Part shown: positions 1,418 to 62,383 of the stretch, piece after piece
How the letters are laid out: each line of letters begins with the position of its first letter
Position numbering within the stretch: the stretch's first letter is position 1
From: Naegleria gruberi
Taxonomy: Eukaryota
Assembly: GCA_000004985.1 (NCBI GenBank)
Contig: GG738917.1
Length of the DNA stretch: 64,000 nucleotides
Direction: 5' to 3' (one strand)
Notes under the pieces: model-generated
Database searches by the model: none
What the model was told of the DNA's origin: nothing
The model's input: only the letters and a program-made list of their open reading frames with translations
Program-made: the position numbers and the translations under genes

Positions 1418-1554
1418 CTCGGTTTCTAGTTGTTTTTGTTTCCTTCAGGTTTCTGGAAGCATTTTGAGATGAGTTAGACAATTGTGAAATTTAATGGATA
1501 CCTTTATTAGGTTAAACAATTGGAAAGGATTTCAAGACAGCACTTTACAAAAGC

Positions 1555-1832: not shown

Positions 1833-1892
1833 AAAAGATTCTTCACAAATAAAATTACAACAAATTATTCAATAATTATAAATTTAAAAAAA

Positions 1893-4794: not shown

Positions 4795-4922
4795 AACAGT
4801 TTTGAATTAACTAATAATTATATATGAAAGGGAACAATAAATCAAAGGTTCCATCACATTATTAGAGGGCAATTGTCAATGCCACAACTCAACCATCAAC
4901 AAATCAAAAAAAATATTTGCTA

Positions 4923-5994: not shown

Positions 5995-6079
5995 ATGTAT
6001 CATAGAAAAACTTTTGATAAACAAAGGTTTATTTACAATATTTACAAATGTTATTGGATTTGATAATGAAATGAAGTAT

Positions 6080-6691: not shown

Positions 6692-6934
6692 TTTTTCAGG
6701 CTTGGAAAATGCTGCTGATGATGATAAATATAAAATTGTCTCCTTGCCAACAACAATAAAATTTGTTTTGAATAAAATGATAAATATATTCACTTACCCT
6801 TATTTGTGTGATAGTAGAAACAATGTAACGATATATAATTTCTAAACAATTACAATTGGGTATTGGCTGACATCAAGCTATTTAATCTTGTTGATTACTA
6901 ATATTAATAATTTAAAATATATTAAATTAAAAAA

Positions 6935-9175: not shown

Positions 9176-9215
9176 ACAATTTTTGATTCCAATTAAGCCA
9201 TCAAATTTGATCTGG

Positions 9216-10040: not shown

Positions 10041-10238
10041 TGAGTGATGATTATTTTTTTTTCATTTTTTTTTAATTAAATTAATTTTAATATTTCAAAT
10101 AGGTATTAGATCTGATAATTATTTGAACGAGTATTTAAATTGAGAAATTTCTTATATTGCTCATCATCACAATATTGCCTTACTGTTTTGGAAGTATAAT
10201 TTTGGCGCCAACTTGCCTACAAATTTGCATTAAAAAAA

Positions 10239-19600: not shown

Positions 19601-20339
19601 TCAATACGAACAATTCAGTAATCAAAAGGAAGAATTCCTGGAAAAGAAGAGTGAACTTGATAGCAGTGCTAAAGCAATTAATGAACTTATCCAAGTTTTA
19701 GATAAGAGAAAGGATGAAGCAATTGTAAGAACATTTAAGCAGGTACAAAAAAACTTCCAAGAAATTTTCCAAAATCTTGTTCCAGGTGGTCATGCTTCTC
19801 TGTCTATGAAATATAGAAATGGTGAAGATGAAGAAGAGGAAGAAGAAGAAGATGAAGAAGCAAAGGAAGTTGAACAATATGCTGGTGTTTCCATCAAGGT
19901 CTCTTTCATGTCAAGTGGTGACTCTGAAGAAGATCAATCATACCATCTCATGCAACAGCTTTCAGGTGGTCAAAAGTCACTTGTAGCTCTCTGTCTTATT
20001 TTTGCTATCCAACGTTGTGACCCTGCACCATTCTATTTATTCGACGAAATTGATGCTGCTCTCGATCCTGCCTACAGAACATCCGTTGCCAATATGATTG
20101 ATACTCTTTCAACGAAGGAAAAGATTCAATTTATTACAGCAACGTTCAAACCAGAAGTTTTAGAAACAGCTGAAAACTTTTATGGTATTTCATTCAAGAA
20201 TAAGGTTTCTTCAATCAAATTGATTTCAAAGAACGAAGCTCTCAAAGTTTTGCAAGAAGAAGAAAGACTAGGTGGCAATCCTCAAGAAATTGAAAGACCA
20301 TCGTCACCTGCAAAAGTTGATGAAATGGAAGATGAATAA
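16647..20339 (+). CDS. SMC3: Structural maintenance of chromosomes protein 3 (cohesin SMC3)
   Basis: 1230-aa single ORF. N-terminal Walker A (IVGRNGSGKSNFF); VEIVFDNSDNRLP; long coiled coils flanking a hinge; C-terminal ABC signature/Walker B/D-loop (QQLSGGQKSLVALCLIFAIQRCDPAPFYLFDEIDAALD); FITATFKPEVLE. Many segments match SMC3 rather than SMC1/2/4. Confidence 0.9.
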   Translation: MHIKSVTIQGFKSYRDQTFTSQEFSASQNIIVGRNGSGKSNFFSAISFVLSEKFSKLRSEERQAFLHEGTGRGVISAFVEIVFDNSDNRLPTDSKEVAIRRTIGLKKDEYRIDGKAVTQREVFNLLESAGLSSSNPYYIVEQGKVSSLTTMKDAERLELLKEIAGTKVYDQKRAESLTIMKDTEQKKQKIDEVIEYVQGRLDELEQEKEELKEFQKLDKDRRCVEYAIFEQELSEATKNLEEIEKARESQHTLANQLHMDKMHLQQKLKDYERDIKTAKLQKDTKQKEKEILESERQDLIRQRTKVDLELKDYQQLHKDDESTRNDFEEELREIDEKINDLNSQLNDELIPQLDLLVREEKEISDKLQQSERRMNELLSIQGRKNKFDNVKDRNKWLTEEINKLEKVNASYDEQITTRTSDVKKLKEALSTYERTIQEKEKSFSDNRKKIEQYQRNYVNLKDRRDNLTNQKKELWKEQNDVEKETQRLQDELVRAERKLDMTFPKSISSGVRSVNTIKKERNLSGVYGTVIELIRCDPKYHRAVEVTAGNSLYHVVVENEKVSGDIIKIMNESNAPGRVTFIPLNRLKALDSDDSIGTSEFIPLWKKIDADSKFNEVVKSLFGKTFCTKTLEDGAQFAKDHNVNCVTLAGDQANRKGTLTGGYIEQKQSRLDCWKQIKDLRKTYSESFDKSKKIKASIATLEEQLNSCITDLHKVESEVHNSKNTIQYEQQEIHNLTVRRDLIKDNLRSNEELLEKVKSILSSNKETIESYTKEKDLPLDATLNSREKQELEKLSKSVTELTTKLQGVSKNRLEKETKKESLRIQLTTNYIPRKSELQVLIETLPTDNSISSSHQTLMQLQTEKQVTEERIKDTTESVKRLDQEIDELGETIRNKQEQLETEKSEETKKLQTLQEKASSLEKLLNKKKIWSQKKEECIKQIKELGTLPSDFRKYLETDQKLLLKKLHNTNEKLKKFGHVNKKALDQYEQFSNQKEEFLEKKSELDSSAKAINELIQVLDKRKDEAIVRTFKQVQKNFQEIFQNLVPGGHASLSMKYRNGEDEEEEEEEDEEAKEVEQYAGVSIKVSFMSSGDSEEDQSYHLMQQLSGGQKSLVALCLIFAIQRCDPAPFYLFDEIDAALDPAYRTSVANMIDTLSTKEKIQFITATFKPEVLETAENFYGISFKNKVSSIKLISKNEALKVLQEEERLGGNPQEIERPSSPAKVDEMEDE

Positions 20340-21053: not shown

Positions 21054-21103
21054 NNNNNNNNNNNNNNNNNNNNNNNNNNNNNNNNNNNNNNNNNNNNNNN
21101 NNN
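21054..21103. other. Assembly gap (50 N)
   Basis: Run of N. Confidence 0.99.
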
Positions 21104-26422: not shown

Positions 26423-26494
26423 TCCCGTGTAGTCCAATGGCTAGGATACCTGGCTTTCACCCAGGAGGTCCGGGTTCAATTCCCGGCATGGGAG
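26423..26494 (+). tRNA. tRNA-Glu (anticodon UUC)
   Basis: Cloverleaf: acceptor TCCCGTG/CATGGGA; anticodon stem CCTGG/CCAGG with loop CTTTCAC; T-arm GGTTCAATTCC; discriminator G. Confidence 0.9.
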
Positions 26495-30339: not shown

Positions 30340-30409
30340 GCGTCGATGGTTTAGTGGTAGAATACGGCGTTGCCATCGCCGTGACCCGGGTCAATTCCCG
30401 GTCGACGCA
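30340..30409 (+). tRNA. tRNA-Gly (anticodon GCC)
   Basis: Acceptor GCGTCGA/TCGACGC; anticodon stem CGGCG/CGCCG with loop TTGCCAT; T-arm CCGGGTCAATTCCCGG; discriminator A. Confidence 0.85.
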
Positions 30410-30972
30410 TTCAAAGATAACAATTTTTACTTTCTACATACAATATTATAATATTGTATATAATATTGGACCAAAGCCTTAATATCATTTGTATCATTCA
30501 TAAGCATTAGTTATTGCAATTCTTGATAAATATTCAATCCCTTTTTCTCCAATATTAATAAATTAGATCAAAGATTGGAAATTTCCTTTTATCCTTTCTT
30601 CTGACACATTTCTATTCAACGTTAAACATTCAGTTGTCGCAAATTTTGACAAATAGATCGACTTCCTACATCTTGAACCTATGCTGAAATCAAGTTTAGT
30701 TTCGTTAAAGTTGAAGTTTTTATTTGAAATTAAATTAGCTCCTTCACTTCCCAATTTTACATGTTTCATTTCATTTTGGAACTATATCTTAATAAATCAA
30801 AATTGAGATCAATCTTAAAAGGTTAATCTTTTCAGTTTCGAACACTTTGAAAGGTGTTTAACAGTTTCATCTCCTACCACTCCATTAATTCCCTCTATCA
30901 ATGCTAAACCTGAAAGTAATTCATTTTTTCTTTTCTTCATGGAACTTTGATTGTTGTTGAAAACGTTGTAAG

Positions 30973-31053
30973 GCGGTCTTGACCGAGTGGTTAAGGTGAT
31001 TGACTAGAAATCAATTGGGGAGACCCGCACAGGTTCGAGTCCTGTAGATCGCG
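30973..31053 (+). tRNA. tRNA-Ser (anticodon AGA), class II with long variable arm
   Basis: Acceptor GCGGTCT/AGATCGC (one G-U); D-arm CCGAGTGGTTAAGG; anticodon stem ATTGA/TCAAT with loop CTAGAAA; variable arm GGGGAGACCCGC; T-arm CAGGTTCGAGTCCTG; discriminator G. Confidence 0.85.
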
Positions 31054-31127
31054 ATTGTTTTTATTAAGGTATCACATGTTAAAGTGTGATATTATTTTGA
31101 TTAATAAACATATTGTTATTGGGAAGA

Positions 31128-31200
31128 TCCCCCTTAGCTCAGTCGGTAGAGCGTCAGACTGTTAATCTGCAGGTCGGTGGTTCGAGCCCACCAGGGGGAG
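31128..31200 (+). tRNA. tRNA-Asn (anticodon GUU)
   Basis: Acceptor TCCCCCT/AGGGGGA; D-arm GCTCAGTCGGTAGAGC; anticodon loop CTGTTAA; T-arm GGTGGTTCGAGCCCACC; discriminator G. Confidence 0.85.
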
Positions 31201-34117: not shown

Positions 34118-34939
34118 ATGAATAACCTTCTCAAAAGTATCCGAAGTCAAATCCATCAACATTTTACCTCCTCCAATAATAATAATAATACAGCTACTAC
34201 TTCATTACTTGGTAGTTATATGTTGAGTAGGAAAAGCTGCACAACCAAACAATGGAATGTTTTTGTGATTGCCTGTGATGGAAATATCGGAGTTGGTAAA
34301 AGTACACTCTGCAAGGTGATGCAACAATATATTCATAAAGAGTTTAGTAGTAGTATACTGTTGTGTCATATTGAAGAGGATGTTGAGAAGAATATTGAAC
34401 TCTTTAAAAAGTACTTGTCCAATCAGAGAGAATATGGTCTTGAATTTCAGAAATGGATTATTAAAGATAAGATTCAACAATTCTTAGATAAGGTTTCAAT
34501 ATGGGAAGATGAAAATGTTGAGCAGGATAAGATTGTTGTCATTATGGATAGATCATTGTTGGCAGATCGTTTTGTCTTTTTCAGAAATTTATTAGAAAAG
34601 AAACTAATGAGTCAAGAACAATTACAAGATTATGAACAAACATTTGAGAAAATGTCTAGAGAATATCCAGTTAACTTGTTTTATCCAGATTTTCACATCA
34701 TTTTAGAAGCTTCAATTGATGTTGCTATGGAAAGAATTAATAGAAGAAATAGAGTTGGTGAAAGTTCAGTTTACAATAAGAATTACTTACAAATGATTGA
34801 AGATTTCCATCTTGACATGTATAAAACCTTACCAGTGAGAGAAGGAGCAATTGTATATAGACATGATAACAGTATTAATCAAAGTATTACAAATATTGAA
34901 CAATTTCTTACAGAATCACCACACAATAGATTTGTGTAA
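34118..34939 (+). CDS. Deoxynucleoside kinase family protein (dCK/dGK/dNK-like) with N-terminal extension
   Basis: P-loop IACDGNIGVGKSTL; the family 'ERS..DRY' segment present as MDRSLLADRFVF (compare dCK ERSIYSDRYIF); Arg-rich lid region INRRNRVGE. Confidence 0.75.
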   Translation: MNNLLKSIRSQIHQHFTSSNNNNNTATTSLLGSYMLSRKSCTTKQWNVFVIACDGNIGVGKSTLCKVMQQYIHKEFSSSILLCHIEEDVEKNIELFKKYLSNQREYGLEFQKWIIKDKIQQFLDKVSIWEDENVEQDKIVVIMDRSLLADRFVFFRNLLEKKLMSQEQLQDYEQTFEKMSREYPVNLFYPDFHIILEASIDVAMERINRRNRVGESSVYNKNYLQMIEDFHLDMYKTLPVREGAIVYRHDNSINQSITNIEQFLTESPHNRFV

Positions 34940-34999: not shown

Positions 35000-37900
35000 T
35001 TAAAGCTTGAAGAATTTAGAATATTTGCCCATATTTAAGAGACCATTGTTTGCTTCAACAGTTGGATGTACAAGGAATGCAATTGAATTTTCAGCTTTGA
35101 GCACAACATTAACTTCTGGACAACACTTCTTAACTGTTTCAATAGTTTCTTGGAATACCTCTTCAACATTCTTAAAGTTAACAAATGAATAGCTTACTCT
35201 CTTGTCATTAGTTAATTGAATGCATTGTCTATTACTCATATTCCTCTTTCCAACCTTGGAGATCTTTACAAGTTGAGAGTATGGAAGTATCATCTTTAAA
35301 CATGAACCACTATTAACAGTTGTAGTGAAACATAGACAATCTGTGAAAATGTAAAATTCACCAATCAACTTGGTATCATAATCAGTACAACTGTACTTGT
35401 TGAATAATCTTGTTTCTGGTTTGAGATTAAATGTCTTTCTAACAACATCAGAGACAGGATATCCCTTCTTTGAGATAACCTTTTGTTGAGATGCAATATC
35501 AGAATCCTTATCATCCTCCTTTGTAGTGTTAATAAATAAGAGCTTGTTAACAAGTGATGAATCTTTTGCTTTGAATTCACTTGCATTCTTCAAGATGAAT
35601 GTTTGAATAACTTCAAATGCCTTCTCTCTATCTTTGAAACATGAAAATTGGAATTCCTTCTCAGATTTGGAAACAGTAATTGAATTATCGAGTGCTCCTG
35701 CACCAAATGTAGATCTGAATACACTCTTAATTTTACCTATAGAAATCTTGATATAATCAATTTGAGTGTTATATTGAGGTTCTGATGTGAAAAAGTTAGC
35801 AGTTCCTCTAATTGCAGTCATTGGATTCAAGTAATGTAGCATTGAATATTCCTTGTTTGTTGCTTCAATTGTAACATCAAGTTTAAATAACTTGATAAGG
35901 GATGATATTGGAATCCAACTGATACAAATATCAGGTGAACTCAAAATACAAATAAATCCGTCATTTCCTTTGTACATGCATCTGAAGAAATCAGTGATAA
36001 CTAATTTAATTTCTTCGTCAGCTCCAGTAATCTTTGTTGGGAACTTTAAAAAGTTCATGAATTCTTCGCCAAGTTGACCTGCAAGCCCTTTTCTACATGA
36101 TCTTACAAAAGCATCCAATCTAAAAACAATATCTTTCAAATAATCAGAGCTTTCCATTTCAAAGAATTCGGATTCAATCATCTTGGCTTCATTTTCCACC
36201 ATTTCTGTAATATTCTTCTTTTCAAGTTCAAGGATGGCTTTTTGATGAAGGAGAGATTCAATTTCCTTTCTCAAATCCTTTGCTTTAGATCTTGTTTGTT
36301 TTCTTTCATTTGTAATTACTCTCATAGATTTAACATGTTTGTATTTCTTTTTCAATCCATCAATTTCCTTTCTCAAATTATCCAAAGATTGTTTGGATTG
36401 TTGATAATTATCTTTAGCAGTTTTAAGTGCTTTTTGGAACATGTCAAAATCACTATTAATTAAAGCTTGATTACCTTCAAACAATGACATTTCTGAAGTA
36501 ACAAACTTGTTAGCATCAGGGTCATTCATTCTCTTATTTCTTGTTTCAATGGCTCTTCTGTGCAGAATAGCAAATATATAATTACTTGTTACAATAATCT
36601 TACTCTTAACTTCTTCTGCATCAGCAATTTGATCTTTCAAATCATGAATTTCTTCTTCTTTATCTTTTCTAGCTAAATCCTTATTCATTGTTTCTATGAG
36701 ATTGGCAACATCTTCAATTTGGATTGATTTTTCATTGTATTCATCAATTAGCCTCTTTGTAGATGTCAAACTCAATTGGAATAATTCAGAAATAAAATCA
36801 AAATGTTCCTTAATGTACTTTACATCAAGACCAGATCCATTTGCATTGAAATAATCCATGAAAGATTCAAATGTTGTTTTGAATTTTTCAATTTGAGATC
36901 TTGTTAGAGTTGGTCTATCAGCAGGAGGAATAGCACATTCCTTCAACTCATCAATTAACATGTTAAAGATATTTCTAAGAACAACCTCAAATACCCTATC
37001 ATTGAGGACACTATAAAGAGTAGCCAATTGATCATCCAAATAATCAAAAAGTGGTGTCATGAGCGAGTTGAGATCAATCTCAGAAACATTTGGTTGTAAA
37101 TTATTAACTGGTAGTCTATTGGATGATGTAGTTCTTGTAGGAGTTGAAGGATTACTTCTTGTAGGAGTTCCTGGAGAAGAAGGAACAGCACCAGGTTGAC
37201 TAATCTTTGTAATTGTATCAATTAAACTTTCCTTCATGGTCTTGAAGATTAATTGTGAAAGGTGGTTATTCATCTTTTCTTGGATCATTGACTTTAAAGA
37301 TGTTAACAATACTTTCATAGTATCGTGCATCATTCTCATACCTTCCAACAGGTCATCCTTCTTCTTTTGTGAATAAGATGAAGTTACGGATGTACTTAAA
37401 TCAATAGATTGAGATTCATCATCTTCATCCAAGGATCCTAAATCATAATCTTCGATTTGATTGGCAATTTCAGATTGTTGCTTCAGCAATTGTTTGTGAA
37501 TATCTTCAGAGAGTGATCTCACTTGATTAATAGTTTCTAAAATATTATTCATACATAAACCCATTTTAGAAACAATTTGTTTGTGAACATCCTTTCTAGT
37601 TTCTTCATACAAATCTTCTTCCTGTTGTTGTTGTTGAACAGTAGTTTTTCTCTTCAATAACATATCCTTATATTTGGCACTTGTTTTTCTATTGACATAT
37701 TCTTCTTCAATCTTTTTCATCTTTGTGGTATTATCAATAAATATTTCCAAATTCATAGTCGCATAATTTTCAATAACTGTTGCAATAACGTGTGTATAGG
37801 TTACATAGATGAGAGGAAGAGTTTCAAGTGAAGAGTTACCTGTTCCAAACTTGGAATTTGTAGACTCAGCCAAAGTTCTAAAAGAATCCAAAATTGATTC

Positions 37901-40900
37901 AGAGGCATATTGGGCAGGTGGTTGAATTTCTGATTTTAAGAATTGTAAACTTGTTTCTAAAATAATTAAACTTTGTCTTAATGATGTGAATGTATCAATA
38001 ACTGATGTAGTATAACTAACATCTTGAGTAATTGGTTTCCATTCACCATAGTCAACTGCCTTCTTACACCATGAAGTTGCACTCTTTTCAAACGTTTCAA
38101 TCCACTTGTAAACATATGGAATGAAGATATCTTTAAGTGCATATGGTTGAACATTAGCATGGTCAGCTAATAATTGATAAATCTTTTCAATCTTTGATGG
38201 TAAATCGAATAAACCTAAAGGAAGTTCTCCTCTATCAGTGTAATATCTAAATTTGCTTGATTTTAACTTGTGTAGTTCAATTTCAATACATGAATAGACT
38301 TGATTAGACACAATTTTCATTACACCAACACTTGAAGGGAAAGTAGGTTCGAAATGAGTTTCATATCGTGGTAAATGTTCATTTAAAACTTCAATGAGAC
38401 ATAATAATTGAACTGGATGAAGACCTCCACTCTCATCAGGTTGTAAATTTGGATCTTTCTCTGCTAATTTGTTAATAATTTTACCTCTATAATAATCAAA
38501 CAAATTAACCATACTATTTTCGATACCTTCCTTTGTTGCAATTGAAAGTGATTTGTAACCATGATTAATACCATCAGGATCTGCCATACATGAGAAGGCA
38601 TGAATTAAAGTTGAAACCTTAACAGCAAACATGATAATGGTATCCATAGTTTCATTTGCTGATTTCCAGTGATTGTCAATAATGAAACTCAACTCTCTAT
38701 TAATATTCTTTGCTGCTTGGGCAAAGATTCTCTTCTCAGAGGATGTCAAATAATATCTATCAATAACTGGATCATCATCAAGTAATTTGTCCTTCTTTTT
38801 CAATTTTCCTGCAGCAGAAAGATTTCTTGTAATAATGGTTCTTACCAAGTGAAGTAAACACTTGTAAATATTACCAATTTCAGAGTAGGAATGTTTGAAT
38901 TGTCTTGAGAGTTTTTCCAACAAGACCAAGAATGCAAAGACACCATCTCCATATCCATAAAAGTTAGAAACAGCTTGAATAACTTCGAGAGATTCATCTT
39001 TAAGTGTCAACATCTTAGTTTTAACTTTGGTTGATTTATCTTCTTCCTCATCTTCATCATCGCTATCAGCTGCTGAGCTTCTCTTTTCTTCAACAGTAAA
39101 AAGTGAATATTGAAGAATACAATCAATAAATTGTTGGATAATAACATGTCTATATCTAACATCTTCATCACCATTATCGTGCCTCTTCTTTACATCATCA
39201 AGTGATAAACTGAATTGAGAAAGTGCTTCATCAATATTCTTTGTTTCAGTTTCAATGAAATTGTCATATTCACGATCTGATTCAAAGTGCTTTTTAGCAT
39301 AGAATGGGTGTTCATCTTCAGAATCAACAAATCTGTGATATCTTGTTGTACATTCTTCTAAAAGTAGATTTTTAACTCCTAGTTTTTTCAATTCTCTCAA
39401 TTTGTAGTCTTTCAGATCATCTCCAACAAAACAAGCTTCCGCAACAATATTATACAAAATATTGAACTTTTCTGATGGCATACCAATATTAACATCAAAG
39501 TACATTACAAAAACAGCTCTAGCAGCAAGATTAAATGCTTCCTCACGTTGGGATTTCAAAATAGTAACAGAAGCTCTTGAAAATCCTGTTAAAACTGCTC
39601 TAATATTAGAAAATGGATCTCTCATAATGTTATTTTGTCTATCCATTTCATAGAGCTTTTTGGTAAATTCAACTTGTTCTTTTCTGTTTGAAATTTTGTG
39701 AATTTTAACAGATTTTCTATTCTTTCCAGTTGGGATCACAGGGCTGGTTGCTTCATCTTGAGTATTTTTGAGTAAATCTTCAAAATCTTCACCATCCAAT
39801 AATTCATCAAGACTCAAACTTGGAACATTGACATCTTGATCTGCTTCCTTCTTATTCTTTGTTGAAGGAGTATTAATGGTTCCAATAACATTATCCATAA
39901 TTTCATGACCTTCCAATTCTTCGAAAGCTGTAGCACTATCAAATGCCATTTCAGACTTGTCTTGAACTTTACCAAGTTTTTTCAAAGTCTTTGAATTCTT
40001 CATGATTGGAATTTCATAATTATCAATAATATTGAGAACAGTTCTAAGAATTTGAACAGATAAACCCTGCCTTTCTCTATCATGTTCTAAACCCATAACA
40101 GATAAGAAGAGTGACTCGTAGGTATTTCTGAATTTTTCTGCATGTAATTTGGCAGCTGTACAGAAACCGTCAGTATAGTTAGGGAACATTTTGATCATCG
40201 TTGCAGATTGAGTCATTGCTTCATCATGTCTTTCAGGGTCTTTATCGAGCATGAGTGATTCAATGTGGTGACGAAGATATCTCTTATTGTTTGGTTCCAA
40301 TAAGACAGCTTCAGAGAATAATTCTTGTGCCTTTTGAAGATCTTCATAACTGTCATCCTCTTCTTCAATTTCAATCTTTTCTTTCTTTCCACCATAACTA
40401 AAGACACTGAGTGCACTAAATATGGATGTGTAGAGACTTTCATCTTCTTCCTTTGAATTTTTAATTTCTTGTTTGATTTCATCTTTTTTACGTTTCAAGA
40501 ATGCTGTATAATTTTCAAAGAAGATTTGACCTTCTTCATCTTTTTCAGCTGCAGTAATACTCTTTGATTCTCTATCATAAATTTCATCTTTCAATAAGAG
40601 TAAGTTATCCATAGCTTCTTCATCGTCAAATGTTAAACTTTCTTCAATAATTTCCTTAGCCTTTTCATAATCACACAATTCCAAATAGATTGTTGCAAGG
40701 GTAGCATAAACTTCTTCACTAGTATCATGTAGGAGAGCTTCTTGAGCGTCTTTCAATGCAATTTCTGGTTGAGAAAGTTTAAGTAACACTCTGGCTCTTC
40801 TACATAAATATTGGGCACAATCATCGTGTAGGTGAATAGCACTAGAGTAGAGTTCAAGTGCTTGTTCATAATTTCCATTGGCATAACAATCTTCAGCATC

Positions 40901-43900
40901 TCTTGCTCTCAAATAGGCTTCATTCCATTGGCTTTCAATTCTGATTAATTTTTCCAATCTCAATCTCAAAGTTTGATCATTTGGATACATATCCATACCG
41001 TTTTGTAATAAGGTTTTAGCTTCTGAGAAATTTTTGAGTTCTAAATGGATATCAGAATGTAATCTAATAGCAATAATATTCTTTGGATCGAACTTTAAAA
41101 CCTTGGTGGAATCATCAAGAGCTTTTTTGAACTTTTGTCTCTCGAATAATGCTTTCGATCTTGCCAATAAATATTCAATATTATTTGGACGTAATCTGAT
41201 GGCCTTATTCAAACAATTAATAGCTACATCAAATTCTTCAGCTTCAATGGCTTCTCTTCCTTCTTCAAATTTCTTCTCTGCATCAAAACTAGCTGTTTGA
41301 AGTTTTACATTATGCCAAACATCATTGAGTGGTGTATTGAATGGAGATTGAGCAAGAGCACTATTACACAATTCAATACTTTCTTCAAGATTTCCTGTTT
41401 CCATCAATGATTTACACAATAATACATAAAAGTGGGGGAATGTACTTTCTAATTTAACAGCTTGTCTACAATCTTCAATAGATTTTTCAAATTCTTCATT
41501 CTCATAATAGCATTCAGCTCTTTCAAAGTATAATGAAGCATAATCTCTATCATCTTGAGTCTTTTCTTCACTATCTTCTATTTTCAATGAGAGAGCTTCA
41601 GTAAATTGTCTTATCGCTTCATAAAAGTCATTTTTGGACTTGGATTTCATACCTGCTTTAACAAGGAAATCAAACTTGTCTCTTGTTCGTTTCAAATCTT
41701 CTACTTTCTTTGTTAAATCTTCTAACTTTTCAATATGTTCAGATTGAAGATACAAGTGACGTTCATATTCTTCAATTTTTCTCTTCTTTTGTGCTCTATG
41801 TTTAAAAGTCATATCTTTAAGATAGTTAGTGGCAATATCGAATTGACGCATTGAGGTATAAGCTCTTGCACCAAGAGAAATAGCTTCATAAATGACGTCT
41901 ACATTAACTCTATCGACTGTATCTTCCTTCTTTTCATCATCAGTTTCTGCCTTTTTATATCTTTGACCAAGGAAGGAAAGATAGAGACCATCAGTAATTT
42001 GTCTCATCACTTCAATAGCCTCCTTAATATGCGATACACAATGAATATATTGTCTGAGTAAATATTTACATCTTGCTTTGGATAAATAAAAATCTGCACT
42101 GTGTGGATAAAGATCAATGGCTTCATCCAATAAACTGACTATTTGTTCAATTTGTGCAATGGTCTTTTGGGGAAGTTCTAAACTTGTAATATTAATTTTG
42201 TAAAGTGTAAATTTAGGATTTTCAGTGACAATTTCCTTTTCGACATCTTGGAAAATAAACAAGGCTCTTTCATATTTCATTTGGGCAAGTTGTTTCTTCT
42301 TATATAAATCCTTAGACTTCATGAATTGACTCTTAATGTTTGAGTTTTCAGGGAACATTCTCATGGCTGCTTCCAGAACTGTAATAGAATGATGGTATCT
42401 ATTTAAAAACTGTAAAGCAACACCCTGACACAGGTAACCTTCATAACTCTTTGGTGAGATTCTAGAGGCGAGAACGGCAACTTTCAAGGCATTCAAGTGT
42501 TTCTTCTTTCCTAACAAAATATCAACCTTATCTGAAAGATAGGAAATATTAGTTGGATCCTTTTCAATAACTTCATTGATAGTGAGTAGGGCGTCTTCAT
42601 AATTTCCTTGTTGGAATAACTGTTTGGCATAAATTGATAAGTTGGCTGCTTTTTGCATGGTTTCCTTCTTCTTTTCTGCGTCCTTGAGTGCTTGTTTTAA
42701 TTGATTGAACCCTTCATTAACTGAAACTCCATCCATTTCCAAGAATTCATCAGCAGCATTTACAACCTCACAGTTTTCAACACCTTGTCCAAAAAATTCA
42801 ATAGCCTTGGTAACCTTTCTTTTGGCCAAATAACATGAACCAATAATATAATAGGCTTTCCAATAGTCGACAGCCATTTCCAAAACTTTCTTTGCATATT
42901 TTACGCATTGCTTATAGTCTGTCTTGAGATAAAAAGCATCAGCCAAGGCAATAATGTACTTGACACCAAATGGCTCGAATGAAATAACTTTTTTTAACAA
43001 ATCAATAGCCTGATCACAATCAGATTGTTCCATATTTACATCAATTTCCTTAAATAAATATTCTTCAAAGAAAAGATCAAGAGTTTGAGATTCTTCTTCT
43101 ACAATTTCTTCTTGCTCTTTCATTCTAATTTCATCAATCTTATTAATTTTTTCTCTGTAAGATTCTAATAAATCCTTAGCTTTGTCAAACAAACTTTCAA
43201 CAATCATACTTCTATCCCTCTTTTCAGAGAGGAATCGTTCAAACTTTTCAAGTTTTTCTCTCAGATAAACATCTTGTGGTTTTTCATTTTTGAATGAAAG
43301 AATATTTGAAAAACTGAAATTAGCAGCCTTATTGGCCTTTTTGAAAAATTGTTGAATTTGCTCTTCAGCACTGTCAATGGTGGTCAAGCCAGTGTCATAT
43401 TGCTTCTTTCTTTCAAATGCTGTGGCCTTTACAATATATACAGAGGTCATCCAAGATCCAATTGAAGCGTAATCAATTGTTTTCTTTTCCTTGATATCTA
43501 TCATATCAAGCATTTCAACATATTTGAGGAATCTATTGGCATCATTGATTGCCTCATTAAAGTTACGTTCTTTAATTCTACACTTTGCTCTGATCTTGTA
43601 ACTCCTCAATATCAAATTGTTAGGGAATTTACCCTTCATTAATTTTGATTCTTCATCTGAAATTACATCTGTTAACATTAATCTGGCAGAAATATGATCA
43701 TTGAGTCTGTAAAAAATAATACCCTTCTTGGTTTTAAAATCACTATCATCGTGTCTGAGTTTCAGACCTTCCTCTACATCAATATTAGCCTTGTCCCACA
43801 TTTTCAATTTCATATAACACTCAGCTCTTGTTCTATATTGTTCTATATTCTTAGGATTCTTTCTAATTTTGATTGTTTCTGCTTCAATCAATTTTACAAG

Positions 43901-45741
43901 TTGATTCTTCTCTTCTTGTGTTTTATCAACTTTCACATCTTCATACAAATGTTTTTCAGTAGATTTCAATTCATTTTCTGCTTTCACGACAACATCATCT
44001 TCTTCACTAATATTCAAATCTCCAACACCAACTTTAAGTAAATCAATAACTTGTTTAACATCAACAGTAGCAATACCAGCTTGAATACCTTGTTTAAAAT
44101 TACTACCTCCATTTACATAAACACAATCATCACTTGAATCGTAAATCATGATGTGTCCTTTTCTTGCAGTTGGCCAAGAGTCATTAAGTTTAATCATTCT
44201 TGGAAGTGGAACAAATGATTCATTTACAAGATCCAAAATATGACAATCTCTTCTATGTGTGTAATCTCTTACACCACCAAATATTAAAATACATCCTCGT
44301 CCAATATTTACAGCTGCAGATGAATATCTTTCATCAGGAGGTTGGTCTAAAGTTGTTGCAACAGAACCATAACTTGTTGTGCTACTGTAGGAGTAAAAAG
44401 GTGTGAATCGTGCAATTTCTGACCAAGCTGTTTTACCAGAAATTCCCAATTGTTTACCAAAACCTTTCACTTGAGAAACTGTAGCATTTGTAACACCTTT
44501 TGTAACATCAACTACTTTTGTAATAATATTCTTATCCTTATCATCATAAATACTTTTTGATGGATCTGTCAAACAATGCCATTTGCTTGTTGTAAAACTA
44601 AATGACCAAACATCATTAAAACAAGTTCCACCAATATTTTTAGTATTCAATGCTTCAGTTATTTTACCTATATACATTGCATGAATATTTGAAAATCCAA
44701 ACATGATAACCATATGATGTTGATTCTTTTCGATTGTTGGCATTTTAATTTCACTCTTATCAATTTCTGATTTCATCATTTCAATATATAATTTCTTAGC
44801 TTGGGCTTCAAAAACAAGACTCATATCCATAATAACACCAGAATGTCCATATCTAGCTTCTGGTGCCTTAGTTCTATCAAAAGCAACTTGTGTCCAAATT
44901 TTAGTTTCCAAATCCAAACACCAAAAATCTGCCAAAGGCTCAGATCCACTATATCCACCAAATACCCACATACAGTCATTACTTTGAGTTCAAGTATTAT
45001 AATTATAATCAAAATTAGAAATCAATTATTAAGAGAGAAAAGAAATTATAATAAAGATTCAATAGATAACATACTAAACCATAGCTGTATGCATAGATCT
45101 TCCCATTGGACGACTTTGTTTTTCATCAATGTCACACCGAGTCCATTTCCATTCAGTTGTATCCAAAACCCAAACATCATTCAGATAATTACTTCCATTA
45201 TATCCACCAAATAAAATTACTTGTTCTTCCATAACATATTCCTCTGCTTTTGTTATTGGATTAATTTTCAATACTTCAGTTTCCCACACAGCAGTTGTTT
45301 GTCCTTCTCTTGATGAAGGAAATTGTGGTCCACTTGTTGTCAAGTTATTATTGTTTTTTCCTAATCCAAAAAGTCCAAGCATTGAACTCTTCTTTCCCTC
45401 GTATGAGTTTCCTTTAGAAACTATTGAATAGGTCCATTCTATCATTAAAATATTTTCAAATAATATAGTATTTAATTTGTTTCATCATAATTCAATTTCC
45501 GATATTGTCAATTTTCAAATCTACTTGCTTGACTGAACATACCAATATTATCGTGTTGAGGATTTTCATGTTTTTTAAATTGAACAACATCATTATATTT
45601 AGAGTACTTGGATGATCCTCCAAATATATAAAAACTTGATGGTGTTCTTTTTAAACTAAAACATGAATGATTTACTCTTTCTTCAAAAAAGACATGATCA
45701 TCATATTCAGGCTTTACTTCTCCTGATAATTTCCACTCCAT
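35000..45741 (-). CDS. Giant (~3500 aa) Kelch-repeat / TPR-repeat protein with C-terminal GRAM-like domain; complement(join(35000..44981,45075..45438,45543..45741))
   Basis: Three ORF-track pieces join in frame through a 104-nt intron (GTATGTTC..AATGATAG, 45439-45542) and a 93-nt intron (GTATGTTA..ACTCAAAG, 44982-45074). The N-terminus has Kelch blades (FYIFGGSS..YNDVVQF; LFGGYNGSNYLNDVWVLD; WVFGGYSGSEPLADFWCLD; ILIFGGVRD). The middle has >1500 aa of TPR-like helical repeats and coiled coil. The C-terminus (..FNLKPETRLFNKYSCTDYDTKLIGEFYIFTDCLCF..LVKISK..) fits a GRAM/PH-like fold. Confidence 0.8.
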
Positions 45742-46219: not shown

Positions 46220-49200
46220 ATGGAACAAGATACATTGCTGGAGGAGGAAATAGATTTTGATCAACAACAAGAAGAACAGCAGCATTATCATGGAGAGGAT
46301 ATCCACTCGGATGAAAATATTTTGAATGAATCTACAAGTAATGATAATCAAGAGGAAATAGTCAATAGTGATGAACAAGGACAAGACGAGGCTTTGTGTA
46401 GAATTTGCAAACAGCCTGCAGCTGATGATGACCCTCTTTTCCATCCGTGCAAGGTATGTTTTAAATATATTATATATTAGTATTGATATTGTAGTGTTCC
46501 GGAAGTATTAAATACATTCACGAATCATGTTTAAATGAATGGATGAAACACTCTAACAAGGGAAAATATTGTGAAATATGTAAACATCAATTCAAGTTTG
46601 AAAAAGTGTATACTACAGATGCACCTATTAAATTGTCACCCTTGCAATTTATTTTAGGCTTACTTTCGGTTGTATTTAGTTATTTAAAATCAATTAGTAG
46701 AATTCTTCTTGTAGTATTCATTTGGATAGTTTTAGTACCTTTTATTACCTATCAGTTTTATAGGATTGTGAATATAACCTCATGGAGACAAATACTGTCA
46801 ATAGTTGAGTTTGAAACTCTATTCGAAGATTTTTCTCTCTTATTATTCATCAGGGATTGTATGTTAGGAGGAACAATTTGTTTATTTGTACTACTTTTAG
46901 ATTTGATTACTGCTGGAGTTTTAGAATTCATCAAGTCTAATTTGGAGTTGTTAGAAAATTATGTTAATCCTCAACAACAAAATCAAGTGGCAAATAATCA
47001 ACCACAACCTGTTAATGCTCAAGTAGCTAATAATGCTAATAATAATAACAATGAAGTTTTAACATTGAGGGATTTGCTGAACCAAGAGCAAGAAATGCAA
47101 GAAGAGGATGAAAATAATGGGAATGAAAACAATGAAGATCAGGAAGAAGAGGAAGAAGAGGAAGAAGAAGAGAATATTGAGAATGAAAATAATGATAATC
47201 AGCCAAACATTATTCAACCTCCTCAACCAATTGTTAATAATCAACCACCAAATAATCCTCCACAACAACAACAACAACCTAGAGAGGAATTGGATTTGGA
47301 AGAAATGATTGGTATCAAGGGAAAGATTTCTCATTTGATTGAAACTGTTGCTTTGGTACTTTTCGTCAATTCTCAACACATATTGTTGTTACTCTTCCTT
47401 CCTCTACAAATTGGAAGGTTTTTATGCACAACCATTGTTCAAGAATTGGATATTTCGTCAGTAATTTATCAAGTCTTGGCTGAACATAATTTATTGAAGA
47501 ACACAACTCAAATTATTTCCAATGTTACCCAAACCATGAATGAGGTATTTAATCAAACTATTACCACTAATGGAACCATGGCCAATGAACCTAAGGAATC
47601 TGTGGAATTGACTAGTATTATGGTGTTTGCCGAAAAGATAGCACATATTTTGACTGGTTATGCATTTTTGATAGGAATGATTTATACCTATGTAGTCATC
47701 AATTATTTGCTACATTATGGTATTTCTAAGAAGTACTTCCCAATAAGTGGATTGGCTAAGAAATTGGTTTATTATACCAAGTATGTGTTGCTCCTTGTCA
47801 AGATTGCTGCAATTCTTGCCACCAACTTTATTTTAGTTCCTTTCTTAGTAGGAATGTTACTTGTCTTTTCAACCATTGAATTCTTTAAAAGAAATGAGAA
47901 ATCAGTTCTTCCTCAAGACTTTACAACAACATCCAATTCTACAAGTTTCTCTATTGCAGACCAAGCTTCAATGATTTATAATAGTACTGCTCCAATAGTC
48001 CAGGAATTTACTGAGAAAAATGCTACTGAATTAGTAAGAGGTTTAATTATTGGTACTCATGCTTATTTCCAATCAGTGTCTGTGGAGTGGGTTCTTTCAA
48101 GAATGGTTTACATCATGAGTGTATCATTTATTTATTTCGTATTTGGTATCGTTGTAGTAGTAATTGCTAGTAGCTTTATTCAAATGCTTAGATCCTTCCT
48201 CTCAAAGAGAGTACTTTGGTTTTTGAGAGATCCAGACGACCAAAATTTCCACTACTTGAAGGAGCTAGTGACTCTTGGAGTTTTCACACATATGCGTAGA
48301 ATATTCTTCTCCTTTGTGTTTTTATCAATTCTTGTACTTGCATTAGTTCGTACTCCTTTGAAGCTTGCTAGATTTATTCTTCAAGATTATGATATTTTCC
48401 CTCTTAGATTGAGCTCTAACTTGAGTGAGTCTACCACAATAATTGAGCTTACAGTGGATGCTTCACTTCCAATAATTACTTTCAATTATATGCAACAAAG
48501 ATGGCTCAGNNNNNNNNNNNNNNNNNNNNNNNNNNNNNNNNNNNNNNNNNNNNNNNNNNGCTGAATTGAAAAATCATCATTTCTATACTTACATTGTTGG
48601 ATTTTACTTGATCAGTGGTGCTATTTATTTGGTCAATTATGTTTATACTCACAGATCACTTACTGAAGCTATCAAGTGGACTTTGGTTGTATTGAAATCA
48701 TTTATTATGGGAGTATTTTCTATTGTGTTGATCCCATTACTCATAGGTGGTGCTGTACATATGTCTGTAGTGGTACCAACCACTTTATTTATTAGCAAGC
48801 TTGAATCTGAGGATCTAGATGATAGTTTGAGTGGCTCTCAACCTGTTCTTATGTTGGCAGAGGTATGGTCAACTGGGTTGTTATTCACAATTGTAGCTTA
48901 CAAAGTGGTTAAGTTCTTGCCAGGTACGGAAGAAATATACACAGAAATTTCCCGCATCAAGACAAATGGATTCAGAAATGTTGAATTTATTAGACCTTTG
49001 AATCGAGTGCTTTTACCATTTGTGTATAATTTGGTTCTTTTCTTGACTTTACCATTTATTGTTTCCAAGTTAGTTGTTCCATTCTTTGTTACTCCATATG
49101 TTCAATATCAATTGTTTGTGTTGAGCTATCCTGCTCTTGTTTTTTGGATTGTTTCAAAACATATTTATTTTGTGTTAGCCAAATTATACCACAAACTTCA

Positions 49201-54170: not shown

Positions 54171-56600
54171 TTATTGTTCTGCCTCCAAGTCTGGATTTAA
54201 TTTCAAGAATACTTGTTCTAATGTGGATTGAGTTACTATGAATGATTGCAAACCAATTTCATCCTTCTTTTCTGTTAATTGTTTAAAAAGTGTTGGGAAT
54301 TGTGGCAGTAAATCGTTTGATAGGGTACATTTACATTCATTTCCACTTGATTCAAATTCAAACTTGGTTGGATCTGAAATGAAATTAGAAATAAATTGTT
54401 CAACCTTTCTAATAGATTCACCTCCATCTCTACAAATCATATCAAGACTATAACCAATGCCAAAATGATTTTTCAAATACAAAGGACTTCCAGAAACTTC
54501 TAATTTTCCATTCTTTAAAATATGAATAATATCTGAAATAGCATCAGCTTCTTCCATTTGGTGTGTTGTTAAAAAGATAATTTTACCATTCTTTCTAAAC
54601 TTTTGTAAAATAGTCCAAATTAATTGTCTATTTTGAATGTCCATTCCAGAGGAAACTTCATCTATGAGTAAAATTTCTGGATTACCAATAATTGAAATGG
54701 CAAATGCAAGTTTTCTCTTTTGACCACCACTCAAATCTGATGCAATTTTATATTTAAAATCCATAAATTCTAATTCATTTAGAATTGAATCAATTATTTT
54801 ATCCATATCTTTAAAATTTCTAATAACACCATTTCCATTTAAACTTGTTTTAATAATTGCAAATATTCTTAAATGATCTAAAACTGATAAATTTTGGAAA
54901 ATTAAATCATCTTGAGGACAAATGCCTAATTTAGATCTAATATCATCAATATTAGTGTTAACATTTAAATTATTAATATAAATATTACCATCATTAGGTT
55001 TTAATAAACCAACAATTAAAGAAAATAGAGTTGATTTACCACATCCATTTTTACCTAATAAACAAGTAATTTCACCTTTTTTAATTTCCAAATCAAGTTC
55101 ATTTAAAACTGTTAATATTTCAGTTTTAGGTTTAAATAAATTTAGAATTGAATTTGTTTTGGAAGTATCTTTTTTAAATGTTTTTGTAATTTTTTCAATT
55201 TTAATATTTAATTCAGAATTATTTACATGTTGTTCTTGTTGTGTTATATTTTTAAAAAATTCAAAAATTGATTGATTTTGTCCAAATGTTAATTTATCAA
55301 ATAAAATTGCAATTAAAATATATAAAAATAAATCTAAAAATAAATATCCAATTAATAATCCAAAATTAGTTTGAATTAATTGATTAAATTCATGTTTAGA
55401 AACTAATTCATAAATTAAATCTGAAAATGTAATAGGACTAAATAAATAAACAAAATAACGTAAATAATTAAAAGTATTTTCTGATAAAATTGGTAAAACT
55501 AATCTAAAAATAACCCAAAGTATTTCTAAAAACATGAAAAATAACATTGAAACAAATAATGCTTTCTTTGGATCATTAAACATTGAACCAATAATTAAAA
55601 TTAAAGGAATTCCACTTGATAAATATAATGTTAATAAACTTGCAAATATAAAAATATTTAAATTTTTAAAAATATTTAAAATTAAAATTGAAGTACAAGT
55701 TAAAAACATTAAAATTAAAATTTCAATAAACCAAGACATAAAATAAGATAAAATATAACTAGTATTATTACATCCCATTAAAATCATAAAAGATTTAATT
55801 TTTGATTGTTTTTCTGTTACAATTGTAATTAAATTTGGATTAAAAAAATTTAAAATACTAAAAGAGAATAACATTGCATAGGTTATTGTTATTGTAAATG
55901 ATGAAACTGTTGCTTCTTGTGTATTTGGTAAATTTAATGAATTAATTTTCATTGAATTTAATGTTTTTTTAGTATTTTTAGAATTATAAACTGCCATATT
56001 TGTATATTTTTGTAAATCTAAATAATATTTAAAATCTTGATATTGATTTTGATATAATGAACTTGTTCTATTTGTAAAAATTACACTTTTAGATTTAATA
56101 TTTATAGAAAGTAAATAATTTTTATAATTTTCTAAATATTCTGCATTTGTATTTTCAATATTAAAATTAATTCGAGTTTTGTTTTCCAAAATTGAGAGTA
56201 AATTATTTTTTAAAACATCACTTCCACTATTAGATATGACATAAATAGAATAATCTTTTATATTTTCTTGTTTATCCAATATAATATTATTAATAGTTGA
56301 AATATTTCCGTTGTTTGAAGTTGTAAATAAAAAGTTACTTAAAATCCACAAAATAATTACTAATTGTATTGGAAATGTAAAGGCTGAAATGGTTTGAAAT
56401 GGTTTTTTAACTTTATATTTAATATTTTTATAACATAGAATAATTGTTTGTTGTATTACTGATTGAATAAATAGTTTCAGATAGGATGTTTGATTTGTTT
56501 CATGTAAATTATCATCATCATGATAATGATGAATAGAATCTTGTTGATCATCAATGATGGATGGTGTATCATCCTCTTCCGATAGTTGTTGTTGTTGCAT
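54171..56600 (-). CDS. ABC transporter, ABCA-type half transporter (TMD then NBD)
   Basis: 809 aa. The first TM helix is followed by a ~170-aa extracytosolic loop (an ABCA hallmark), then 5-6 more helices. The NBD has Walker A LLGKNGCGKST, the ABCA-like signature LSGGQKRKLAFAISIIGNPEILLIDEVSSGMD, and the H-loop. Confidence 0.85.
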   Translation of the reverse strand: MQQQQLSEEDDTPSIIDDQQDSIHHYHDDDNLHETNQTSYLKLFIQSVIQQTIILCYKNIKYKVKKPFQTISAFTFPIQLVIILWILSNFLFTTSNNGNISTINNIILDKQENIKDYSIYVISNSGSDVLKNNLLSILENKTRINFNIENTNAEYLENYKNYLLSINIKSKSVIFTNRTSSLYQNQYQDFKYYLDLQKYTNMAVYNSKNTKKTLNSMKINSLNLPNTQEATVSSFTITITYAMLFSFSILNFFNPNLITIVTEKQSKIKSFMILMGCNNTSYILSYFMSWFIEILILMFLTCTSILILNIFKNLNIFIFASLLTLYLSSGIPLILIIGSMFNDPKKALFVSMLFFMFLEILWVIFRLVLPILSENTFNYLRYFVYLFSPITFSDLIYELVSKHEFNQLIQTNFGLLIGYLFLDLFLYILIAILFDKLTFGQNQSIFEFFKNITQQEQHVNNSELNIKIEKITKTFKKDTSKTNSILNLFKPKTEILTVLNELDLEIKKGEITCLLGKNGCGKSTLFSLIVGLLKPNDGNIYINNLNVNTNIDDIRSKLGICPQDDLIFQNLSVLDHLRIFAIIKTSLNGNGVIRNFKDMDKIIDSILNELEFMDFKYKIASDLSGGQKRKLAFAISIIGNPEILLIDEVSSGMDIQNRQLIWTILQKFRKNGKIIFLTTHQMEEADAISDIIHILKNGKLEVSGSPLYLKNHFGIGYSLDMICRDGGESIRKVEQFISNFISDPTKFEFESSGNECKCTLSNDLLPQFPTLFKQLTEKKDEIGLQSFIVTQSTLEQVFLKLNPDLEAEQ

Positions 56601-58460: not shown

Positions 58461-60087
58461 ATGATTGAAATATCATCACGTTATCCACTCAATCATATCA
58501 AGACACTTCTCGTCAATTCATCCACAACAACAAATTTATCATCACAAGAATTAAATCAATTAATTAATAATATTAATAATAATCTTTATTCCGATCATCA
58601 ATCTTCTTCATCCTCACAAAATAATAATTCTTTCCATATTGATAATAATTCTAATAATATAAATAATTCTAATATAAATATAAATAATAATATAAATATA
58701 AATAATGAAATAATACAAATAAATAATTANNNNNNNNNNNNNNNNNNNNNNNNNNNNNNNNNNNNNNNNNNNNNNNNNNNNNNNNNNNNNNNNNNNNNNN
58801 NNNNNNNNNNNNNNNNNNNNNNNNNNNNNNNNNNNNNNNNNNNNNNNNNNNNNNNNNNNNNNNNNNNNNNNNNNNNNNNNNNNNNNNNNNNNNNNNNNNN
58901 NNNNNNNNNNNNNNNNNNNNNNNNNNNNNNNNNNNNNNNNNNNNNNNNNNNNNNNNNNNNNNNNNNNNNNNNNNNNNNNNNNNNNNNNNNNNNNNNNNNN
59001 NNNNNNNNNNNNNNNNNNNNNNNNNNNNNNNNNNNNNNNNNNNNNNNNNNNNNNNNNNNNNNNNNNNNNNNNNNNNNNNNNNNNNNNNNNNNNNNNNNNN
59101 NNNNNNNNNNNNNNNNNNNNNNNNNNNNNNNNNNNNNNNNNNNNNNNNNNNNNNNNNNNNNNNNNNNNNNNNNNNNNNNNNNNNNNNNNNNNNNNNNNNN
59201 NNNNNNNNNNNNNNNNNNNNNNNNNNNNNNNNNNNNNNNNNNNNNNNNNNNNNNNNNNNNNNNNNNNNNNNNNNNNNNNNNNNNNNNNNNNNNNNNNNNN
59301 NNNNNNNNNNNNNNNNNNNNNNNNNNNNNNNNNNNNNNNNNNNNNNNNNNNNNNNNNNNNNNNNNNNNNNNNNNNNNNNNNNNNNNNNNNNNNNNNNNNN
59401 NNNNNNNNNNNNNNNNNNNNNNNNNNNNNNNNNNNNNNNNNNNNNNNNNNNNNNNNNNNNNNNNNNNNNNNNNNNNNNNNNNNNNNNNNNNNNNNNNNNN
59501 NNNNNNNNNNNNNNNNNNNNNNNNNNNNNNNNNNNNNNNNNNNNNNNNNNNNNNNNNNNNNNNNNNNNNNNNNNNNNNNNNNNNNNNNNNNNNNNNNNNN
59601 NNNNNNNNNNNNNNNNNNNNNNNNNNNNNNNNNNNNNNNNNNNNNNNNNNNNNNNNNNNNNNNNNNNNNNNNNNNNNNNNNNNNNNNNNNNNNNNNNNNN
59701 NNNNNNNNNNNNNNNNNNNNNNNNNNNNNNNNNNNNNNNNNNNNNNNNNNNNNNNNNNNNNNNNNNNNNNNNNNNNNNNNNNNNNNNNNNNNNNNNNNNN
59801 NNNNNNNNNNNNNNNNNNNNNNNNNNTGTTATGGTAAATTATTTATTTGGAATGTACATACTAAACAATTATGTGCCATTTTAAATGATCATTCAGAACA
59901 TGCCTATATTAGAAATACACTTGTTATTAATCAATTTGATAATATGAATAATACTAATAATAATTGTAATGGATTTTATTTATTTACAAGTGGAGATGAT
60001 AGTATTACTAATATTTATGAAACAACAATTAATAATAATAATAATAACTTATCAACCCAAAGATTGGATCAAGTTTATAATAATTAA
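58461..60087 (+). CDS. Asn-rich protein with C-terminal WD-repeat-like segment, spanning the 1.1-kb assembly gap (internal sequence unknown)
   Basis: The 5' part has ATG 58461 and N/S-rich sequence up to the gap. The 3' part (59827-60087) encodes ..CYGKLFIWNVHTKQLCAILNDHSEH..GFYLFTSGDDSITNIY.. and ends at TAA 60085-60087. The ORF-track entry 58461-59837 is an artefact of translating N. Confidence 0.4.
58620..58729. repeat. AT-rich low-complexity (AAT/ATA)n tract abutting the large gap
   Basis: Runs of aataat/ataaat immediately before the N run. This likely caused the assembly break. Confidence 0.5.
58730..59826. other. Assembly gap (1097 N)
   Basis: Run of N. Confidence 0.99.
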
Positions 60088-61886: not shown

Positions 61887-61958
61887 TAGCAAATCTAGGT
61901 TTCGATCCTAGGACCTATGGGTTATGAGCCCATCGCGCTTCCGCTGCGCCAATTTGCT
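61887..61958 (-). tRNA. Initiator tRNA-Met (anticodon CAU)
   Basis: Minus-strand reading: AGCAAATTGGCGCAGCGGAAGCGCGATGGGCTCATAACCCATAGGTCCTAGGATCGAAACCTAGATTTGCT + A. It has A1:U72, three G-C pairs in the anticodon stem, and the GATCGAAACC T-loop (A54/A60), all typical of eukaryotic initiator tRNA. Confidence 0.85.
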
Positions 61959-62100: not shown

Positions 62101-62383
62101 NNNNNNNNNNNNNNNNNNNNNNNNNNNNNNNNNNNNNNNNNNNNNNNNNNNNNNNNNNNNNNNNNNNNNNNNNNNNNNNNNNNNNNNNNNNNNNNNNNNN
62201 NNNNNNNNNNNNNNNNNNNNNNNNNNNNNNNNNNNNNNNNNNNNNNNNNNNNNNNNNNNNNNNNNNNNNNNNNNNNNNNNNNNNNNNNNNNNNNNNNNNN
62301 NNNNNNNNNNNNNNNNNNNNNNNNNNNNNNNNNNNNNNNNNNNNNNNNNNNNNNNNNNNNNNNNNNNNNNNNNNNNNNNNNNN
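62101..62383. other. Assembly gap (283 N)
   Basis: Run of N. Confidence 0.99.

Follow-up and report, generated by a model that had tools for sequence, protein, structure and literature searches.

A giant Kelch-TPR-MUN-GRAM protein of Naegleria gruberi as a candidate Munc13/CAPS-like vesicle tether

In a stretch of 64,000 nucleotides from Naegleria gruberi (GenBank assembly GCA_000004985.1, contig GG738917.1), referred to as the window throughout, positions 35000-45741 of the minus strand harbor a gene for a giant protein of 3,514 residues. The product is predicted to be a soluble peripheral-membrane protein composed of a Kelch β-propeller, a TPR superhelix of ~1,300 residues, a MUN domain, a charged helical linker and two GRAM/PH-like domains. 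The MUN domain is the most informative of these for function, and its detection moves the reading of the protein from the generic "membrane-contact or scaffold" role of the original prediction, which had been made from the DNA letters alone, to that of a vesicle tether and SNARE-assembly factor. It appears fairly probable that the protein acts as a Munc13/CAPS-like vesicle tether and fusion-priming factor. The modules are located as follows.

43985..45741 (both introns included), minus strand: Kelch β-propeller, residues 1-520, six blades with long insertions
39995..43867, minus strand: TPR solenoid, residues ~560-1850
36710..39577, minus strand: MUN (Munc13-homology, CATCHR-fold) domain, residues ~1990-2945, with low-complexity insertions
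within the MUN domain, minus strand: MHD1 (residues ~2440-2540) and MHD2 (residues ~2820-2945)
36140..36709, minus strand: charged helical linker, residues ~2946-3135 (~190 residues), rich in Lys and Glu, one Pro in 190 residues
35570..36004, minus strand: GRAM-A, residues ~3181-3325, a divergent GRAM/PH-like domain with an insertion of ~40 residues
35060..35467, minus strand: GRAM-B, residues ~3360-3495, a canonical GRAM domain

In the original prediction the MUN domain was absent, and the central part of the protein was described as a TPR-like solenoid with embedded coiled coils. This description holds for the TPR array (residues ~560-1850), whereas a further region of ~1,000 residues is, as judged from its sequence relationships, a bona fide Munc13-type MUN domain of CATCHR fold. 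In a Pfam search with residues 1900-3000 alone, MUN (PF06292) is matched in two stretches with 48 bits (E=1.3e-12, gathering score 24.2), and the single N. gruberi sequence suffices to find the MUN structures of Munc13-1 in the PDB. With a profile of alignment A1, which combines N. gruberi residues 1950-3010 with five distant members of the family described below, the Munc13-1 MUN structures are retrieved with E=2.5e-22 in two collinear stretches corresponding to MHD1 and MHD2, and Munc13-4 with 6e-11. The MHD1 motif is conserved in the family. The AlphaFold2 model of the MUN region calculated from A1 is all helical and depicts an elongated rod of the CATCHR type, with a mean predicted local distance difference test score (pLDDT) of 66.7 and values of 75-90 in the cores.

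C-terminal to the MUN domain, the linker weakly matches coiled-coil families and no other families in Pfam; AlphaFold2 places long helices at both of its ends, and it probably forms a coiled coil. The original prediction had proposed a C-terminal GRAM/PH-like module, which is borne out by the Pfam score of GRAM-B (43.2 bits, E=4e-11, cutoff 23.6; 40.8 bits in another Pfam scan), by a PH-like fold in the AlphaFold2 model and by the closest structural match. GRAM-A, which had been missed, is matched by the same Pfam family with 23.6 bits (E=4.7e-5). In the model of residues 3135-3514, calculated from an alignment of 11 sequences (A2), both domains form a sandwich of seven strands with a C-terminal capping helix; core pLDDT values are 80-89 for GRAM-A and 85-96 for GRAM-B. 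The top Foldseek match of this model in the PDB, located in GRAM-B, is the PH-like/GRAM domain of Lam6 (5yqr, E=4e-6, 26% identity), and further matches comprise a Leishmania PH-like domain (4tyz), the tandem PH/GRAM domains of BBS5, the tandem PH domains of Rtt106, the PH domain of Exo84 and myotubularin-related proteins (MTMR2). By family membership the tandem GRAM domains are predicted to bind lipids.

At the opposite end of the protein, Kelch repeats are detected by Pfam with high significance (PF24681, E=2.9e-39) along with matches to Kelch_1, Kelch_3, Kelch_4 and Kelch_6. Kelch propellers usually consist of six blades. Six Kelch-like blade motifs were counted in the sequence (at residues ~40, 143, 195, 282, 422 and 477), in agreement with the at least five that had been noticed originally, and the repeats are predicted to close into a six-bladed propeller. 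The adjacent solenoid is matched by TPR_2 (E=6.8e-38), TPR_19, TPR_16, TPR_1, ANAPC3 and other Pfam families.

The first 191 residues of this protein depend on two upstream exons, which are joined to the remainder of the gene as listed here.

45543..45741, minus strand: exon 1, coding nucleotides 1-199, residues 1-66 plus one nucleotide, with the start codon and the first Kelch blade
45439..45542, minus strand: intron 1, 104 nucleotides, GTATGT...TAG, phase 1
45075..45438, minus strand: exon 2, coding nucleotides 200-563, with the end of blade 1, an insertion and blade 2
44982..45074, minus strand: intron 2, 93 nucleotides, GTATGT...AAG, phase 2
35000..44981, minus strand: exon 3, coding nucleotides 564-10545 including the stop codon

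Most of the gene is a single unbroken open reading frame (ORF) of 3,323 codons (35000-44971, minus strand), which in DNA of 31% G+C, the base composition of the window, is not attributable to chance. The spliced join of 45741-45543, 45438-45075 and 44981-35000 results in a coding sequence of 10,545 nucleotides for 3,514 residues that is free of internal stops. Its ATG at 45741 follows immediately upon in-frame TAA TAG. If intron 1 is left unspliced, the reading frame stops after 11 codons. There is no N gap within the gene. Similar short introns of the form GT(A/T)(A/T)GT...AG are found in other split genes of the window, one of them (41 nucleotides, GTATGT...TAG, 46454-46494) in the divergently transcribed neighbor. 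An Rfam search inside the gene returned no RNA family, and the plus-strand ORFs of 88-137 residues within it are taken to be chance.

Both splice junctions are supported by several independent comparisons. Exon 1 by itself yields a Kelch_4 match (22.9 bits, E=8e-5), and the Pfam Kelch alignment continues unbroken over residues 137-248 and hence across junction 2 at residue 188. The orthologues of N. fowleri (P0070, 3,519 residues, N-terminus MEWKLSGE...) and Willaertia magna (P0071, 3,501 residues, N-terminus MEWKITNE...) show no gaps across either junction ("...DNIEWTYSIVSKGNSYE" and "...MHTAMVYNDCMWVFGG", respectively), and 139 of 190 residues of the recovered N-terminal 191 are identical in the alignment with these two proteins. 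The same orthologues retain "EWTYSIVSKGNSYE" gap-free, by which alternative in-frame acceptors of intron 1 (45421, 45412 and others) are ruled out. The Pharyngomonas kirbyi protein (P0011) is transcript-derived, therefore an intron-free sequence, and it is collinear with exons 1 and 2. In a metagenomic orthologue, L001, a GT..AG intron of 30 nucleotides occupies the site and phase of intron 1, two nucleotides before a Trp codon. At the site of intron 2 L001 has no intron and reads HTAVVHEDKMYIFGG, compared with HTAMVYNDCMWVFGG in spliced N. gruberi, with equal spacing (HTA, nine residues, FGG). L001 stems from JGI metagenome 3300037860 (contig Ga0401357_00661, ~2450-3000), where a prokaryotic gene finder started the protein at an internal ATG ("MYIFGG"); the true first exon (MQWSVCEVGG...) lies upstream of the called start and is followed by the 30-nucleotide intron. 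Exon 1 is conserved in the N. fowleri, Willaertia, Pharyngomonas and L001 orthologues, and exon 2 is supported by the alignments with the first three. Because the Kelch scores, the gap-free orthologues, the transcript-derived P0011 and L001 agree, the intron coordinates are, at the level of these comparisons, exact, and the gene is confirmed as a genuine three-exon gene. In this respect the original prediction, a protein of ~3500 residues assembled from three ORF pieces over GTATGT introns of 104 and 93 nucleotides with the Kelch register intact, has stood in full.

The public databases already contain the gene, albeit in truncated form and under no other name than "predicted protein". When 1.84 billion representative proteins were scanned in full with HMMER, a 100% identical entry of 3,323 residues was returned, namely N. 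gruberi EFC37578.1 / XP_002670322.1 / NAEGRDRAFT_59745 (UniProt D2W0A1). XP_002670322.1 comprises exon 3 beginning with the ATG at 44971, the first in this exon, and lacks the N-terminal 191 residues. The corresponding residues are present in the models of N. fowleri and Willaertia magna, and an extension of the public N. gruberi model by 191 residues is called for. The L001 protein is labelled "Flp pilus assembly protein TadD/..." in IMG, and similarly misleading names ("TadD" or "TPR repeat protein") are attached to metagenomic relatives. The family would be better annotated as MUN-domain proteins than by any of these names.

Full-length collinear relatives are found in N. fowleri, Willaertia magna, Pharyngomonas kirbyi (2,758 residues; Kelch-TPR-...-GRAM by Pfam), a Logan assembly (2,712 residues) and JGI metagenomes (2,972 and 3,035 residues). 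In Acrasis kona, a model of 873 residues (UniProt name "MHD2 domain-containing protein") aligns with the C-terminal part alone (end of the MUN domain, linker and GRAM), and the same holds for several fragments. Pharyngomonas represents the deepest heterolobosean branch, and the whole architecture is, according to these alignments, conserved in Heterolobosea from Pharyngomonas to Naegleria. The N. gruberi protein shares 73% identity with that of N. fowleri along its whole length and 61% with that of Willaertia, with hardly any insertions or deletions. Identity to N. fowleri amounts to 78% in the Kelch domain, 72% in the TPR solenoid, 74% in the MUN core, 84% in GRAM-A, the most conserved segment, and 71% in GRAM-B, and this even conservation argues for purifying selection on all modules.

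The closest MUN relatives beyond the family carry C2 domains and come from fungi, choanoflagellates, Amoebozoa and Diphylleia; among ten of the nearest MUN matches examined (fungal, choanoflagellate, amoebozoan, Diphylleia and others) there is no Naegleria protein. These C2-MUN proteins, represented by S. pombe Ync13, Arabidopsis PATROL1 and the C2-MUN-GRAM proteins of Diphylleia rotans and Protostelium, have 1,000-1,650 residues and, except for PATROL1, at least one C2 domain, and Kelch propellers and TPR arrays are absent from all of them. Several non-neuronal members carry GRAM domains as well, either after or before the MUN domain, so that MUN plus GRAM represents a recurrent pairing. Examples among protists are Diphylleia rotans P0019 (C2-MUN-5xGRAM), Protostelium nocturnum P0016 (2xGRAM-C2-MUN-C2), P0014 (C2-MUN-GRAM) and P0035, a further smaller protein combining C2, MUN and GRAM, with one to five GRAM domains across the set. 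The combination of domains called uncommon in the original prediction is indeed uncommon, but it is Heterolobosea-wide and not unique to this gene, and its MUN-GRAM part recurs in other protists. The heterolobosean protein is set apart, as far as the compared sequences indicate, by having lost C2 and gained ~1,850 residues of Kelch and TPR.

Munc13/UNC-13 proteins (Munc13-1/2/3, Munc13-4, BAIAP3) have the layout C2B-MUN-C2C, with a C1 domain in the neuronal forms. The Naegleria protein is approximately twice as large and lacks the C1 domain, the C2 domains including those flanking MUN, the calmodulin-binding region and the NF syntaxin-linker pocket. Instead, its N-terminal half consists of Kelch and ~1,300 residues of TPR, and its C-terminal membrane module is a tandem GRAM following a helical linker of ~190 residues. 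In CAPS a PH-superfamily domain is combined with a MUN-type priming domain (PMC3849599, PMC3923642). The Naegleria protein resembles CAPS/CADPS in joining a lipid-binding domain of the PH superfamily to a SNARE-priming domain of the MUN type, and its recruitment would likewise proceed via lipids rather than via C1. Compared with the order C2-PH-MUN-like DAMH of CAPS, the arrangement is reversed, with GRAM C-terminal to MUN in Naegleria and PH N-terminal to it in CAPS; moreover, GRAM is not a classical PH domain, C2 and the dense-core-vesicle binding domain are missing, and at the sequence level CAPS is matched only marginally (6a68, E=0.68 with the A1 profile).

In Munc13 and CAPS the MUN domain links vesicle and target membrane and aids SNARE-complex assembly (PMC3849599, PMC8728020). 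By analogy, the rod-shaped MUN domain of the Naegleria protein would bridge the vesicle and the target membrane and chaperone the assembly of SNARE complexes. The tandem GRAM domains, placed as the C2C domain of Munc13 behind a helical spacer, would provide lipid-dependent membrane attachment, while the Kelch and TPR modules, placed as the C2A/C1/C2B regulatory region, would recruit protein partners. The trafficking step served may be contractile-vacuole discharge, secretion, or phagosome/endolysosome fusion.

Several observations weigh against this assignment. The AlphaFold2 model of the MUN region, based on an alignment of six sequences, is of moderate confidence only, and the GRAM-A score sits exactly at the Pfam threshold of 23.6. 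C1 and C2 domains are not found by Pfam even at E<=10, neither in the whole protein nor in residues 1900-3514; control is therefore expected from lipids and partner proteins and not from Ca2+ or diacylglycerol. Finally, the NF pocket, by which Munc13-1 contacts the syntaxin-1 linker through N1128 and F1131 (PMC8728020), is not conserved: "YMNLHFKV" of Munc13 is aligned to "LFDLPSKI" in N. gruberi (D..S), and across the family the asparagine is replaced by D/E/Q and the phenylalanine by S/G/P/A/E. A syntaxin-opening mechanism identical to that of Munc13-1 is thus not supported; the corresponding contact would not be expected and the SNARE-directed step may differ.

Among the alternatives, the protein could be a CATCHR-type scaffold with a non-SNARE role, for instance a cargo or motor adaptor, in which Kelch and TPR organize partners from the cytoskeleton or from signalling at a membrane bound by GRAM. 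The CATCHR fold is shared by the myosin V globular tail and M-Sec. The similarity, however, is found at the sequence level and specifically to MHD1 and MHD2 of Munc13 (E=2.5e-22), and the nearest relatives outside the family belong to the C2-MUN type of Munc13, Ync13 and PATROL1, which makes such a role unlikely.

As a further alternative, the protein could resemble LAM/Ltc/GRAMD1 (Aster) proteins and serve as a contact-site scaffold or in lipid transfer, in which case GRAM docks to one membrane and the rest of the molecule joins two organelles with no SNARE-related activity. The great length of the protein with its repeat scaffolds would suit this role, and the fold of GRAM-B is closest to the GRAM domain of Lam6. 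LAM and GRAMD1 proteins, however, possess a VASt sterol-transfer domain and a C-terminal membrane anchor. Pfam scans of the whole protein and of its C-terminal part revealed no VASt/StART-like lipid-transfer domain, and no convincing transmembrane anchor was found, the maximum 19-residue Kyte-Doolittle mean being 1.77 in the sole 19-mer above 1.6, which lies inside a MUN helix. Together with the bona fide MUN domain, which indicates vesicle tethering and fusion, this renders the contact-site alternative decidedly improbable and leaves the originally proposed membrane-contact function unsupported in its LAM/GRAMD1-type, lipid-transferring form, the scaffold reading having shifted to that of a MUN-based tether. 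A gene-model artefact (fused adjacent genes, a pseudogene or chance upstream exons), suggested by the draft scaffold with its N gaps and by the difference between public and spliced models, is for practical purposes refuted by the uninterrupted, gap-free frame of 3,323 codons, the whole-length identity to N. fowleri and the full-length collinear orthologues in four other heteroloboseans/assemblies, one of them transcript-derived.

The giant gene is flanked by a divergent gene on the plus strand (46220-48564) with a first exon at 46220-46453, the intron mentioned above and a long ORF interrupted by an N gap (48510-48559). A RING-CH-like cysteine/histidine motif extends across its splice junction, and the second ORF alone has no Pfam match. 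On the other side lies a convergent deoxynucleoside kinase gene (34118-34939, plus strand; PF01712, E=6e-26); its stop codon and that of the giant gene are 60 nucleotides apart, so that both 3' untranslated regions must be very short or overlapping. The window further contains a protein kinase gene (12286-16421, plus strand, with a GTAAGT intron from 15292), an intronless SMC (SMC3-like) gene for 1,230 residues (16647-20339, plus strand), a gene for a half-size ABCA-type transporter (54171-56600, minus strand) and an RGS gene, as well as five tRNA genes, namely Glu-TTC (26423-26494), a Gly-GCC/Ser-AGA/Asn-GTT cluster within 900 nucleotides (30340-31200) and Met-CAT (61887-61958). Runs of N, which are assembly gaps of the draft scaffold, occur at 1635-1684, 21054-21103, 48510-48559, 58730-59826 and 62101-62383. 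The gap of 1,097 nucleotides explains both a block of 11.7% G+C at 58-60 kb, which is not biology, and a sham "ORF" of 458 residues at 58461-59837.

MUN-domain proteins such as Munc13 and CAPS are central to regulated exocytosis, and to our knowledge they have barely been studied outside animals, fungi and plants. In the searchable literature no paper was found on Naegleria together with Munc13, or on a protein combining a MUN domain, a GRAM domain and Kelch; none of the papers naming both Munc13 and a GRAM domain deals with a protein that has MUN and GRAM together, and the C2-MUN-GRAM architecture within the Munc13 family is undescribed there. The protein is a new architectural variant among MUN-domain tethering and priming factors, and not a new kind of system or as yet a mechanistic surprise. 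The outcome is a corrected gene model together with a functional hypothesis, well supported and testable, for a conserved heterolobosean protein of very large size. With every canonical regulatory module of Munc13 (C1, C2) replaced by Kelch, TPR and GRAM, the protein offers a natural test of which parts of Munc13 are essential, and it is a candidate trafficking factor in N. fowleri, the brain-eating amoeba and human pathogen. More speculatively, and with low expectation, it could act as the principal and perhaps sole fusion-priming factor of the Munc13 family in Heterolobosea, independent of Ca2+ and diacylglycerol, with GRAM reading lipid identity and Kelch-TPR integrating partners, and could control contractile-vacuole discharge or the secretion of cytolytic factors, including in N. 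fowleri. If this were true, MUN-based priming can be rebuilt on wholly different regulatory modules.

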